Shown here one piece after another: positions 15,001 through 21,000 of a stretch of 36,453 bases of DNA; position 1 is the first letter of the stretch, and the number at the start of each line of letters is the position of its first letter. The position numbers are program-made. Source of the stretch: a virus (taxonomy: Duplodnaviria > Heunggongvirae > Uroviricota > Caudoviricetes). Location of the stretch: IMG/VR virus record IMGVR_UViG_2740892234_000020, one strand, 5' to 3'.

Positions 15001-18000
15001 TCGAACATCGGGTGGTGCCTCATATGCACTGAATCCGGGTATTGAGATTGACAGTACTTTAATGACTGTTGATTTTCCCACAAAACCGCTGAATTTTAAG
15101 GCGACAGGAGGATTTGGCTCGGTTCTTCTTGAATGGGATATGCCTAATTATCGCGGACATTCACTGACTGAAATCTGGCGGGGTACGGAGGATGACCTTG
15201 CTGATGCAGTGCTGGTTGCCACGACGCCGGGGCAGGTTTACGGCGATCCGGTTGACCCTGGCTGGTCGGGATTTTACTGGATACGTTTTGTTAACGCGGC
15301 AGGAGTGAAAGGTCCATGGAATGCTGAAAAAGGCACTCAGGCACAAACACAGATCGGCGTGAAGGCCATCATTGACCAGATCCGCGATGAGGCTGCAAAG
15401 TCGCCGGTTGTGTCCGAGCTGCGTAAAGAAATAAAAAACGCGCAGGGGCAGGCTGTAAAGGATGCTGCAATTAAGACAACCGAAGTTGTGGGGACTCTCA
15501 GGGAAGAAACGACAAGAACGATTGGTGGTATTGAAACCCGCATTAGCACACTGGATTCGTCAACCAGTGAATCGCTTAATGAGGTCGACAAGCGCATCAC
15601 TAAACTGGATAAAGAAGGCGGTGAGGCGTTTCTGGCAATGTGGTCAAAAAAAGCGGGAGTTGATGGTATCACTGCGGGGATCGGGATTGTCGCCGGAAAA
15701 GACAGTGAAGGCAGGCCTGTAAGTCAGGTTGCAATTTCTGCGTCGCAGTTGTTTGTCTTTGACCCGAACAACCCGGATAACACCGCCTATCCGTTTGCGG
15801 TATCAGGTGGCAAGGTTGTGATCCCGAAAGCGATGATTTATGACGCGGTGATTGAAACACTGGTGTCGCGGAAGGTTGTGGCGGATGAGGTAAAAGCCGG
15901 GGTAAGTATCACTTCGCCAGTTATCCGGAGTGCCGTTATTCAGAACGGAAACTTTCAGGTTGATTCTCAGGGTAACCTGAATATTGGAGGCCTTTTCAGT
16001 GTTACGTCACAAGGGCAACTGACAATTCGTTACTCTAATCAGAATGTAGGACTGGTGATCCGCAATGATAAAATTGAGGTTTATGATCAGAATGGACGAC
16101 TGGCTGTTCGCATAGGCAGATTACGCTGATCAGGAGGTGAGTATTGGAATACGGTTTTGCCATTTATAACAGAAATAACGTTAATGTTACGGGCGTGCTG
16201 ACTCCGGTATTTTTCCTGGACAGATTTACAGCGGAGTCTGGCTCAAAGACGTACACGAATAAACCCGACGGGAAATCATTGCAGGCTGTATGTTGTTTAT
16301 TTCCCTGGAATAATGTATTTGCGGATCGGAAAGTACCGAAGATAACCATTAATGGCAATACGGTGACGTGGTCGAATCTTGAGCAGGGTATGGGATCTTA
16401 TATTTATACATTCTGGGGATAAGTGTCATGTATGGTTTGAGCATTATGAAGCCGGATGGCAGCGTATGGATAAGTCCAGGTTTTACGCCGCAGTGTCTGA
16501 TCAACAAAGGCACCATACCGGCGACTGAAAAGTCTTTTTTTAAAACATCAATCCCGTCAGGCAAAAGTTGTTTTTTCTTTATCAGAACAGAGAAGAAGGC
16601 CGATGTCATGTACACGCATGAACAGATTGATGGATATCATGCACTAAGGCTTCATGTAATTGTCAGGGGAACGAACCCTGGTGTTACGACGGTTTATGCT
16701 TTCGCGAATATGGTTACTCCACCTTCTGAGTATGGTATCGCCATGTATAACCCGGACGGTGAGATGATTTATCATGGCGAAATGATGCTGCTTGACGCGA
16801 AGTTAATACCTGTTGATATCAAATTTGAAAAGGACCTTGGATATCCATGCGCAATCATGCCTGCACTGGTCGGGTATTATAACTGGAAAAGAACTCCTTA
16901 TGATCGACCGATTTATACCACATCCACTGGTGCTACAGGAAATAAAATATATTCCTGTGAGCATTATTCCGGCGGTGCAACATGGGATATTCGAAAGCCG
17001 TATATAGATAAGGTCCTGGTTATTAATACATCAGTATATGATTAGTTGAAGCGAGTCTTTAATATTCATTTAAAATGTCTAAAAAGATGTATTATTAAAA
17101 AGTTTAGCGTGTTATCTGAATACAGGATATCTTAAATGAAGAGTATAGCAACACTGGTTGTGTGTGCAATCTCCGGGATTGCCTGTGTAAATTTATCTGC
17201 ACATGCAGCAGAAGGAAACCATACAATTTCTCTGGGGTATGCGCACTTTCAGTTTCCGGGACTGAAGGATTTTGTAAAGGATGCGACTGCTCATAACAGG
17301 GAGACTTTCAGTCATTTCGTCAACAGAAACTACTTTTCTTCATTGGGCGAATATACAGATGGTCGGGTCAGTGGATATGAAGGCAAGGATAAAAATCCAC
17401 AGGGCATTAATATCAGGTATCGCTACGAGATAACGGATGATTTTGGCGTTATCACCTCTTTTACATGGACGCGTTCTCTCACTAACTCACAGACATTTAT
17501 TGATGTGCAGTCAGCCGATCATACCAGGAAGATTAAGAATCCGGCAGCTTCTGCCAGAACGGATATCAGGGCGAATTACTGGAGTCTGTTAGCGGGGCCT
17601 TCATGGCGGGTTAATCAGTACATGAGTTTATATGCGATGGCAGGGATGGGCGTTGCTAAAGTTAGCGCTGACCTGAAAATTAAGGACAATATTAACAGTA
17701 GTGGCGGATTTTCTGAAAGCAACAGCACGAAAAAAACCTCCCTTGCGTGGGCTGCAGGTGCACAGTTTAACCTGAATGAGAGTGTTACACTGGATGTGGC
17801 TTACGAAGGTTCCGGCTCTGGCGACTGGCGCACGAGTGGCGTTACTGCTGGCATTGGCCTGAAATTCTGACCTGTATCCGGTAACCGTTTACTACCCGCT
17901 GTGATGGCGGGTTTTTTATTGCCCGTACAGGGCAAAAACCGTAAATTATGCGTGGGTGCCTTTCGGCTGATGGCTGGAGGGAGAACCTGAAGGCCTGATG

Positions 18001-21000
18001 TGGAAAGGCCCCGAGTCAACTTAACGTTAACCCGAGGCCCTAACACTTCGTACCTTAAGCAAGTAGAAGGTTAGCGCCTCTCTGTAAAAGGAGTCAAGCG
18101 CTATGCCGCAAAAAACGATCATAGTCAGCATTTTATGCATAACTATTTTGATGATTGTCTGGATGATACACAACTCTCACTGTGAGTTCAGACTTAACAT
18201 CATGTGGTCACAATTTGCGGCGTTCTTACAGTGTAAGCAGTAGGAAAACCGCGACGGGGACGAAAGTCCCCGTCAACTGGTTGCTGAGGTTCAGTCGATA
18301 TGGCACCCGTTTCAGGTGAGAGAATGAACGATAAAATTCTCCGGTATATGCAGCGTGTGGTGAGAAATTCCCGCAACCCTGAATTTATGAATGAAGTTAA
18401 AGACGCCTGCCTTAAAAAGCAGGCGTTTTGTTTTGAGGCACCTGATGGCTTTCTGGTGCTGCGTTCTGTTCTCAGTGCTGATGGTATCCCTTATGTTCTG
18501 GTGTTGCTGGGCGTGTGTACGGGGAGTAACAGCGTTGAGCGTTATCTGCCGGAGGTGAAGACATTAACCCGTCTGGCTGGCGGACGCTGGGCTGAATTTC
18601 ATACGGCAAGGCGGGGATTTATCCGGCTGGGAAAACGTCTGGGCTTTGAGCGAATGCCGGATGATGAGGATGGCTTCATGGTGTTCAGGATAGCGGTCTG
18701 ACTGCTACAGTTTTCATCATTGTGTTTAAACCAACATTGTAATTCACATTCTGACCCTGCTCCGGCAGGGTTTTTTGTTATCCAGGGGGCCATTATGGGT
18801 GGAAGTAAAGGCGGTGGTGATACCAAAGTAAAACCAACAGCAGCGCAAATAGCACAGGAAGAAGTGGCCTGGAAAGGGTGGCAGGATTATCAAAAAATCC
18901 TCCGCCCGGCTGAAGATAACTTCATGGAAAAGGTCGATGACCTGAACAGTGAGCAGCAGTACGACAATATTGCTGGCACCACAAATCTGGGGTATCAGAA
19001 ACAGTTTGGCGAAGCACGGAAGGAGCTGGCGGGTAATCTTGCTCAGTCCGGTGTTGACCCGTCCAGTGGTCGCTTTAACGCGGTAATGAATGCGAACCAG
19101 AGTGATCAGGTAACCGGGCAGATTGACACAACCACACGGGGGCAGGTATCGCAGGCAGATAAGTATGTTGCCGGGCTACAGGATGTTGCAGCTCTCGGTT
19201 CTGGTCAGAAGGCGGATGCGTTACAGAGTTTTAACTCGCTGGCAGACAGCAGTCTGGCAAAAGCTAAATCGGATGCACAGGCGGCGTTTACGAAACAGCA
19301 GGGGCGAGCCTCTCTTGTTGGCGCTGGTCTGGGTGCGGCAGGTGCATATGCGATGCATAAGGCTGGCGGTAGCGGAGGAAGTGGCGGTGCTAAAACACCT
19401 GGCACTGGCGCTAATGCCATTCAGCATCAGGCTCAGAACTGGAGACTGTGATTATGGAGTACGGTAAATACGAAACACTTGCAAGATACGGTTATACCGG
19501 AGCAGCCCGCCCTCAGGGGGACTGGCAGACATCCGCAGCGCTGACCCGCCAGCAATACGACGACTGGCGCACCAGATATTTACCCCGTGTAGCAAGGCTG
19601 GCTGACCTTGGGGAGAACAACAGTCTGATGAATGCACAGCTTGCACGGGTGGGAGGCCTTGCCACTTCCAGTCTCCGTACAGCGCAGATGGCGCAGGATA
19701 ACCAGATGGCGAGATACGGGGTAAGCCGCCCGGATAATCCCGACAGTAATACGCTGGGGTTACGTAATGCCCTGGCAATTGCTGGCGCGAAAAATGGTAT
19801 CCGTGAAGCCGAACAGGATCGCCAGATGAACATACTGACGGGGGCTTCTGCACCTGCAAGACAACAACTGAGTGTTGGCGGTCAAATGATGACAGCGTAA
19901 GGGGGAAGATATGGGGTACGGCTTACTGGATATTGCGAATCAGTCACGGCGTGAGGCATTACAGGGAATAAGTGACGCAGACCGACGACGTGAAGAAATT
20001 GAGGCTGCGAACAAACAGATGGCGGCGCAACAGAAAGCGCAGAACAAGCAGAATATCGGTACGGGCATTGGTACGGGGGCGGCTATTGGCGCATCCGTTG
20101 GTGGTCCTGTTGGTGCTGTTGCTGGTGCAGTAATTGGCGGCATTGCTGGTTCTTTGTTTTAAGGAGTGGTGAATGAGCGGATTTGCACAGGGGTTACTTG
20201 CCGGATTCAGCACCGTTGACCAGGCAATGACCCGTCGTAAGGAGCTTGGTCTGCGTGAAGCACAGCTTGCCCGGCAACAGAAAAATAACGAGCGCGATTT
20301 TGAGTTTGCGCAGTCTCAGTTTGAACATAATAAAAACGTTGATCAGCGGAACTTTGATTACAGAGCCAAAGTTGACGACCGTAATTATGCACTGAAGGAA
20401 AGGGAGTTTAACGCTAACCAGAATTACCGGAATGCGTCACTGGGTATGGAGCAGCAGCGACTCCAGTTGCAGAAATACAACCAGCGACGGCTTGAGTATA
20501 ACGATATGATTGCCCATAGCCAGCCACTAATGGAAGCGCTTGGAAAAGCAATTGAGGCTGGCGATCAGGAGGCTGCAACGCGTCTGTTCGGGCAGCTGCC
20601 AAAGGGACATCCATTAATTCTTATGTCAAACGAAGGCTATGCAGCGAAAGCGGGTCAGGCCGTGATCAACCTGCAAAAAATCTTTGGTGATAAGCCGGAC
20701 ATGGCGATCGATTCGCTGAATACCCCGGAAAATCTCGATGTGCTTTCCGGCGTGTTTGCCCCGGAACTACAACAGCGTATTGGCATGCCTGATTCAACCG
20801 GGGACAAAACGATAAAAGAGGCCAGGATTGGCAGTATCGTACCAGCGCAGCAGGAAGGGTACGTACTTATTGGCCTTGATCTCACATACAGCGATGGCTC
20901 CACCGCGCATAAACCTGTAACAGAATACGGCAGTGCGCACCCTGATGATCAAACCGTGCTGGCGATACCCGTTGATAAGGCTATCGCTCAGGTCAGGGAT

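Follow-up and report, generated by a model that had tools for sequence, protein, structure and literature searches.

A candidate hok/sok-type toxin–antitoxin cassette without a mok frame, opposite the 24B_1/EcOnc53 RNA of Shiga-toxin phages

We analysed a 36,453-nucleotide (nt) stretch of tailed-phage DNA (IMG/VR record IMGVR_UViG_2740892234_000020; hereafter the window, in whose positions all coordinates are given) that carries a 46-codon open reading frame (ORF) at 18103–18243 on the plus strand. Together with its flanks, this ORF probably constitutes a complete hok/sok-type toxin–antitoxin cassette in a Shiga-toxin phage, a reading to which we assign a probability of about 0.78. Over the 421 nt that surround the ORF, the window is 100% identical to Escherichia phages TL-2011c and vB_EcoP_phi367, and 82–97% identical to approximately 190 further Shiga-toxin phages. 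Across 61 IMG/VR loci from several phage contexts (43 distinct sequences in the alignment), homology extends from a −35 box, TTGCCC, at 17919 to just past GGCACCC(G) near 18310, and the flanks vary from context to context. The cassette is thus delimited as a conserved mobile module (17919–18312, plus strand), the boundaries of which coincide with a putative toxin promoter and a 3′ fold-back element.

The ORF encodes the 46-residue peptide MPQKTIIVSILCITILMIVWMIHNSHCEFRLNIMWSQFAAFLQCKQ and is preceded by a Shine–Dalgarno (SD) sequence, AAGGAG (18088–18093), with the ATG 9 nt further downstream. Residues 5–22 form a single hydrophobic stretch (mean Kyte–Doolittle value, 2.8), consistent with the one transmembrane helix described in the initial annotation. 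The Hok signature noted there also stands—in the alignment with Hok(R1) and HokW, C27-E-F-R30 falls on the CE(I/V)R motif and A39-A-F41 on A(A/V)F, with the spacing of Hok(R1); the HokW sequence was read from the window. Searches of Hok-family models, which the same annotation had proposed as a check, returned Pfam HOK_GEF (PF01848; 24.4 bits against a cut-off of 22, E = 2.2 × 10−5, profile positions 7–42 of 42), PHROG 251 (E = 7.3 × 10−20), which the HokW of the same window matches too, and, as the best NCBIfam match, HokA (NF007290; E = 1.3 × 10−9). Curated NCBIfam cut-offs were not reached (38 versus 89 bits for HokA NF007290; 28.2 versus 73 bits for the Hok subfamily NF007279), and scores so far under equivalog and subfamily cut-offs indicate a separate subfamily, found on prophages and a few plasmids. 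Judged by these matches, the peptide is a member of the Hok/Gef family and the orthologue of no named Hok.

The ORF has its full length (45–46 amino acids) in 55 of 60 IMG/VR loci and is frameshifted in the other five. There are two main alleles of 46 amino acids each, that of the window and that of 933W and Phi24B (MSQKSLITVTICMTVIFTIWMLHGSLCEFRLNLWGAEFAAFLQCKQ). The ratio of nonsynonymous to synonymous substitution rates (dN/dS) between alleles is 0.17–0.29, with dS above 1 between the two main ones, which supports purifying selection acting on the peptide. Relative to Phi24B, the ORF of the window has many differing sites, while the leader and the 3′ untranslated region are almost identical; the locus is therefore mosaic, which suggests allele exchange through recombination inside the cassette.

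Contrary to the initial annotation, in which the ORF was considered unannotated, several records contain it. It is F366_gp64, with the product ‘MokW-like host killing’, in the RefSeq entry of TL-2011c (NC_019442), is labelled likewise in the phi367 record and is named ‘Hok/Gef family protein’ (WP_001135717.1) in E. coli chromosomes by the Prokaryotic Genome Annotation Pipeline (PGAP); further records call it ‘small toxic polypeptide’ or ‘host toxic membrane protein’. It is found neither in the 933W listing nor in the annotation tables of VT2-Sakai and Phi24B. Related DNA occurs in 1,644 of 5,426 complete E. coli genomes, at up to nine places per genome, as well as in 33 plasmid records and, at approximately 75% identity, in P2-like phages; a scan with one genome per bacterial species gave no confirmed relatives. 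The protein database holds 17 clusters only, every one from E. coli, probably because gene callers skip the ORF.

A putative promoter for the toxin mRNA (17919–17947, plus strand) consists of the −35 box TTGCCC (17919–17924), a 17-nt spacer and the −10 box TAAATT (17942–17947), and is proposed because TTGC and TAnATT are retained in variants with unrelated upstream context. The lom terminator (17894–17912) and its T run lie immediately upstream, and the −35 box is within a few bases of this run. The mRNA 5′ end (17954–17970, plus strand) was placed from the folds and from the start of a match to Rfam RF01794, which covers 17954–18114 on the plus strand over the full model, from its position 1 (36 bits, E = 3 × 10−6, gathering score 59). 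The true hokW leader of the window scores 47.3 bits, likewise below 59; at gathering thresholds Rfam has no match anywhere in the window, and E-value mode is needed to detect either hok leader. RF01794 is named ‘sok antitoxin’, and its two matches (17954–18114, plus strand; 31216–31054, minus strand) lie on the toxin strand and end at the toxin start codon, so that the model describes the hok leader in sense rather than the antisense RNA. With this 5′ end the leader spans approximately 149 nt (17954–18102), somewhat less than the 160 nt estimated initially; its structured nature is borne out by the fold of the RNA 17954–18320 (−144.7 kcal/mol, z −6.2).

A consensus fold from 25 variants contains 94 pairs, nine of them with compensatory double changes, and retains the helices between the 5′ and 3′ ends. 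In both single-sequence and consensus folds, GGGUGCC (17954–17960) pairs with GGCACCC (18302–18308), and 17963–17970 with 18291–18298. The 3′ fold-back element (UCAGUCGA ... GGCACCC; 18291–18308, plus strand) is thus complementary to the mRNA 5′ end over 15 base pairs (bp), in which changes are mostly G–C to G·U or U–A to U·G and four cells are broken. Such pairing would provide fold-back inhibition of the hok kind. When the 3′ element is removed in silico, the 5′ end is predicted to pair instead with an upstream complementary box (18003–18012, plus strand), the alignment columns of which are mostly invariant. The SD sequence is hidden in a local hairpin (18073–18102, plus strand), in which CUCU (18080–18083) pairs with GGAG (18090–18093) and 18073–18077 with 18098–18102; the consensus fold pairs the SD sequence with the adjacent CCUC (18077–18080) instead. 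The start codon region (18103–18112) is matched by a downstream box in the F-A-A-F codons (18214–18223, plus strand), forming a 10-bp helix in the consensus fold that survives one-sided changes (U·G to C–G in ten sequences). Beyond the ORF, a 3′ stem–loop (18247–18282, plus strand; −23.6 kcal/mol, z −4.9) has three pairs with compensatory double changes in eight sequences each. The hairpin that the initial annotation had placed at 18253–18274 is present, with the difference that it has nine rather than eight base pairs, closes on a GAAA loop (GACGGGGAC-GAAA-GUCCCCGUC) and sits within an outer 5-bp helix.

In one IMG/VR locus (L033), the 5′ element equivalent to 17953–17990 is replaced by unrelated sequence and the remaining cassette is intact; its sequence indicates a natural truncation, which would be without a fold-back partner. 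The first terminator-like site past the toxin ORF is a hairpin at 18403–18435, inside the downstream ORF; it has a T run on either strand, and a longer primary transcript could end there. The start of the gene downstream of the cassette is ambiguous. RefSeq and PGAP place it at ATG 18300, inside the fold-back element (AUGGCACCC), and PHANOTATE, in the phi367 record, at ATG 18324, which has a better SD sequence (GGTGAGAG); given that homology of the hok module stops near 18312, ATG 18324 is favoured.

On the opposite strand lies a Sok-like antisense RNA gene with approximate ends at 17995–18061 (minus strand; start set 7–8 nt past the −10 box and length, 67 nt, adopted from EcOnc53, see below). 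Its promoter (18068–18097, minus strand) comprises the −35 box TTGACT (18097→18092), an 18-nt spacer and the −10 box TAACCT (18073→18068). Within it, GAGGCGCTAACCT is invariant, and TTG is retained at 17–18-nt spacing in 18 of 18 variants. Like the toxin promoter, it falls short of the 9-of-12 rule of our consensus scan; both are proposed from conservation, joined for the antisense promoter by a published BPROM call. The transcript is predicted to have approximately 20 free 5′ nucleotides followed by a hairpin (18007–18039, minus strand; 14–16 bp, 5-nt loop) and a short U-rich stretch. The hairpin is strand-asymmetric—the folding energy is −30 kcal/mol (z −4.5) for the antisense and −15.1 kcal/mol (z −1.5) for the sense strand of the same stretch, and three G·U pairs of the antisense hairpin, present in 17–18 of 18 variants, correspond to A × C mismatches on the sense strand. 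Across the 18 variants, 98.4% of cells pair, and two pairs are changed on both sides. Conservation within the cassette is lowest over the target of the single-stranded 5′ tail (18040–18061, plus strand), where mean pairwise identity is 0.66, compared with 0.82–0.93 elsewhere, and 16 sequence types occur among the 61 loci. Such hypervariability is compatible with a recognition segment and suggests selection for copies that do not cross-talk. The initial annotation had held that no antisense RNA could be called with confidence; with this promoter and strand-asymmetric hairpin, and with the RNA already detected in Phi24B, Sp5 and 933W under other names, a cis-encoded antisense RNA that has its own promoter and is complementary to the toxin leader can be called with confidence. 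By analogy with Sok, it is predicted to neutralize the toxin.

The same RNA has been described in near-identical phages. In the spacer between lom and vb_24B_43 of Phi24B, Nejman-Falenczyk et al. (2015; PMC4426718) reported a 20-nt RNA, 24B_1 (TAACGTTAAGTTGACTCGGG), represented by 2,223 identical 20-nt reads, with a predicted 80-nt hairpin precursor and a predicted promoter, p24B_1 (−35 TTGACT, −10 CGCTAACCT). The boxes of p24B_1 are those of the antisense promoter of the window, and the 20-mer matches exactly at 18029→18010, that is, in the apical part of the antisense hairpin (18010–18029, minus strand; UAACGUUAAGUUGACUCGGG). Overall, the spacer of Phi24B and the window share 89% identity, rising to near-identity across the leader, and this spacer contains an unannotated 46-amino-acid ORF like that of 933W. 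According to Sy & Tree (PMC7873438), 24B_1 is the same RNA as EcOnc53 (named by Tree et al. 2014; detected in Sp5 and 933W through Hfq crosslinking and analysis of cDNA (Hfq-CRAC) and Northern blotting) and sRNA108 (Gruber & Sperandio 2015); they report EcOnc53 to be 67 nt long by differential RNA sequencing and Term-seq in Sp5, judge that the 20-mer probably results from degradation and describe the mechanism as unclear. Judging from the shared sequence, the antisense RNA of the window is the same gene as that of the 24B_1 precursor, EcOnc53 and sRNA108. The precursor is bound by Hfq (dissociation constant, 25 nM) and the 20-mer binds sdhB weakly in vitro (<10% at 100 nM), and 24B_1 is cited as the first functional ‘microRNA’ from a prokaryote or phage. 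Whereas these papers describe a trans-acting, microRNA-like or Hfq-dependent small RNA, we read it as the putative cis-antisense antitoxin of a Hok-family ORF. The word ‘hok’ is absent from PMC4426718, and both ‘hok’ and ‘toxin-antitoxin’ are absent from PMC10732415, PMC12197685 and PMC7873438; we found no link from 24B_1, EcOnc53 or sRNA108 to hok in the searchable literature, including a 2025 review, with subscription journals outside this coverage.

The published constructs affect more than the RNA. The 189-nt deletion of 24B_1 corresponds to 17902–18092. It leaves the ORF in place, but the antisense gene, the toxin promoter and all of the leader are lost, together with half of the lom terminator and most of the SD sequence. 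The 565-bp insert of the complementing and overproducing plasmid corresponds to 17791–18356 and carries the entire cassette including the ORF. Because deletion and plasmid alter toxin and antitoxin together, the phenotypes cannot be assigned to the RNA alone, and because the deletion begins inside the lom terminator, read-through from lom into the ORF is possible in the mutant. ATP was reported to be lower in cells with the plasmid or the prophage, for which leaky expression of a membrane toxin would be an obvious alternative explanation. The lac promoter of pUC18 would transcribe the antisense strand of this insert. We therefore rejected toxin expression as an explanation of the growth defect published for pUC18 hosts with isopropyl β-d-thiogalactoside (IPTG), and the published statement may in any case cover both plasmids.

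In hok/sok of plasmid R1, toxin translation is coupled to an overlapping frame, mok, of which little is left here. The remnant (17990–18024, plus strand) has an SD sequence, GAAGG (17990–17994), an ATG at 17998 and eight codons (MWKGPEST) before a stop at 18022–18024. In five of the 43 variants, the ATG equivalent to 17998 opens a 61-codon ORF that reaches 80 nt into the toxin ORF; a comparable frame is missing from the window, from the common 933W/Phi24B type and from most of the variants. An extension of the toxin in the style of mokW is excluded as well, by in-frame stops at 18064 and 18085.

Control could instead operate through refolding of the leader. Three RNA states were modelled: full length, cut after the 3′ hairpin, and cut with 17997–18061 blocked as if bound by the antisense RNA. 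At full length, the 5′ end pairs with the 3′ element (18291–18308), and the probabilities of being unpaired are 0.12 for the loop 18053–18061 and 0.32 for the SD sequence. After the cut, the 5′ end pairs with 18003–18012, and these values become 0.75 and 0.50. With 17997–18061 blocked, the 5′ end forms a local hairpin with 17975–17988 and the value for the SD sequence returns to 0.32. In the models, the anti-SD hairpin dissolves in the cut state and re-forms in the blocked state.

On this basis, we propose that an mRNA of approximately 360 nt or longer, starting near 17954 on the plus strand, encodes a 46-amino-acid single-helix membrane peptide whose toxicity is predicted by analogy with the Hok family. 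In the full-length RNA, the 5′ end would lie on 18291–18308, the SD sequence on the upstream CUCU and the start codon on the F-A-A-F codons, so that the RNA would be untranslated and closed to the antisense RNA. Loss of the 3′ element, by analogy with the 3′ trimming of R1 hok, would move the 5′ end to 18003–18012, dissolve the anti-SD hairpin and open 18053–18061 as a loop. The antisense RNA of approximately 67 nt, made from the minus-strand promoter TTGACT-N18-TAACCT, would attack this loop with its 5′ tail and form a duplex over approximately 17995–18061, which would stop toxin synthesis through recapture of the SD sequence by the freed CCUCU or—as an alternative or in addition, by analogy with R1 and SokW—through cleavage of the duplex by RNase III. 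Toxin would be made from the stable mRNA once antisense synthesis stopped, for example when the prophage is induced or the element is lost. The scheme would be that of R1 without mok: fold-back, activation by 3′ trimming and attack of a tail on a loop.

A number of observations weigh against a functional cassette. In the window, upstream starts open no ORF that extends across the toxin ATG at 18103, and without an overlapping mok frame the canonical coupling mechanism cannot apply. The start codon is mostly paired in every modelled state (probability of being unpaired, approximately 0.2), which leaves the switch model incomplete, and 3′ shortening opens the SD sequence only from 0.32 to 0.50. 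The putative toxin promoter fits the consensus at only 8 of 12 positions, and a scan of 17850–18450 on both strands under the 9-of-12 rule found no promoter; nor was a terminator found in a scan after the fold-back element. The scores against NCBIfam and RF01794 fall short of the curated thresholds given above, and the membrane toxicity of the 46-residue peptide is a prediction by analogy. By reverse transcription PCR (PMC4426718), the short transcript was visible only after induction, whereas an antitoxin is expected in the lysogen. Chromosomal hok relatives are a further caution. Many of these loci are reportedly inactive.

One alternative is that the cassette has decayed to a silent toxin relic, with mok lost and the ORF untranslated, and that the antisense RNA has been kept for trans targets through which it tunes the lysis–lysogeny decision. 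The reduction of mok to eight codons, the sequestration of start codon and SD sequence in all modelled states and the frameshifted loci are what such decay would leave, and a trans-acting RNA would accord with the binding of Hfq, the weak pairing between the 20-mer and sdhB, and the published phenotypes. However, the length and motif of the ORF are kept, and its dN/dS is low despite dS above 1; the SD sequence, fold-back, start-codon helix and 3′ hairpin, all needless for an RNA acting in trans, are conserved with compensatory changes; and the tail of the antisense RNA is the most variable part of the cassette, the opposite of a seed for conserved trans targets. We therefore consider decay unlikely. 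In the published reading, the locus would serve only as the source of a microRNA-like 20-nt RNA, 24B_1, which is processed from an 80-nt precursor and targets d_ant and sdhB in trans, and the ORF would be irrelevant. The thousands of identical 20-nt reads, the deletion and plasmid phenotypes and the in vitro binding of sdhB were advanced for it, but the 20-mer coincides with the apical part of a Sok-type hairpin and is regarded by Sy & Tree as a likely breakdown product of the 67-nt RNA, its binding to sdhB is below a tenth at the concentration used, and the deletion also takes the toxin promoter, leader and SD sequence while the plasmid carries the ORF. We find this account very improbable. 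As for a chance ORF in an intergenic spacer, for which the shortness of 46 codons might speak, the profile matches (E from 2 × 10−5 to 7 × 10−20 in three independent libraries) refute it, the ORF is conserved across contexts, and we give the idea virtually no credence.

A divergent Hok-family type I toxin, as first proposed for this ORF, is thus supported by the family models, the sub-threshold Rfam leader match, the covarying RNA structure and the dN/dS values; the parts in addiction, abortive infection or lysis timing put forward with it are candidate roles. On the hok/sok reading, the Hok-family ORF opposite 24B_1/EcOnc53/sRNA108 provides a concrete hypothesis for an RNA whose mechanism has been called unclear or microRNA-like, and the published deletion and complementation constructs hit toxin and antitoxin together. 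We tentatively suggest, as a possibility we hold to be somewhat short of even odds, that 24B_1 arises by breakdown of a Sok-type antitoxin, that the phenotypes attributed to it (changes in lysogenization, in the timing of induction and in survival after infection, and lower ATP) may stem from gain or loss of a mok-less Hok toxin cassette, and that this cassette would be controlled by an anti-SD refolding switch rather than by mok coupling. A mok-less cassette may thereby show hok-type toxin control without translational coupling.

Comparison with hok/sok of R1 (details in part from the summaries in PMC8621323 and PMC5488031) shows a shared architecture. Both have the C-E-x-R...A-A-F spacing, and the leader of the window resembles the Rfam hok/sok leader model, at a score below the gathering threshold. 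Also in common are 5′–3′ fold-back, predicted here, with an alternative partner for the 5′ end, a 3′ stem–loop, a short antisense RNA in which an unpaired 5′ tail precedes a single long hairpin, and an antisense promoter with its −10 box in the leader and its −35 box adjoining the toxin SD sequence. Unlike R1, the cassette of the window has no mok frame overlapping the toxin ORF and no terminator past the fold-back element, encodes a peptide of 46 rather than 52 amino acids (approximately 30% identity to Hok) and resides in a phage late region rather than on a plasmid.

The window also contains hokW–sokW. Takada et al. (2021; PMC8621323) showed for Sakai prophage 5 that HokW (51 amino acids) is toxic, that SokW counteracts it and that the locus speeds lysis after induction. 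Their hokW cloning primer matches 31059–31039 on the minus strand; the hokW ORF lies at 31059–30904 (minus strand), with the second Rfam sok match (31216–31054, 47.3 bits) over its leader, and over 30840–31171 the window matches the annotated mokW/hokW/sokW of 933W at 100% identity. Ten N at 31172–31181 interrupt the hokW leader, and its 5′ element (GGGTGCTTGAGG...) is unreadable in the window. We considered and rejected the idea that the cassette at 18103 is hokW–sokW itself, given that the primers map to 31059 (minus strand) and that the two cassettes are approximately 64% alike in a forced alignment. They share the phage group, PHROG 251, the general layout and the AGGTTAG −10 region, and Hfq is implicated for both antisense RNAs. 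The peptides, however, are 20% identical, the antisense target sequences are unrelated, and mokW of 933W, which extends hokW in frame by 19 codons from a start that SokW covers, has no counterpart here. HokW is experimentally characterized, whereas the present cassette is a putative toxin–antitoxin pair, recognized from its sequence as a second, divergent paralogue of hokW–sokW within one Shiga-toxin phage. Shiga-toxin phages of this group would then carry two hok/sok-type cassettes instead of one. The second cassette goes unmentioned in PMC8621323, and as only one of the two was deleted in that study, the partial phenotype may have been buffered by the other. With the chromosomal hokA–E loci, the cassette shares HokA as its best NCBIfam match and the occurrence of several copies per genome; it differs from them as a separate subfamily borne by prophages and a few plasmids.

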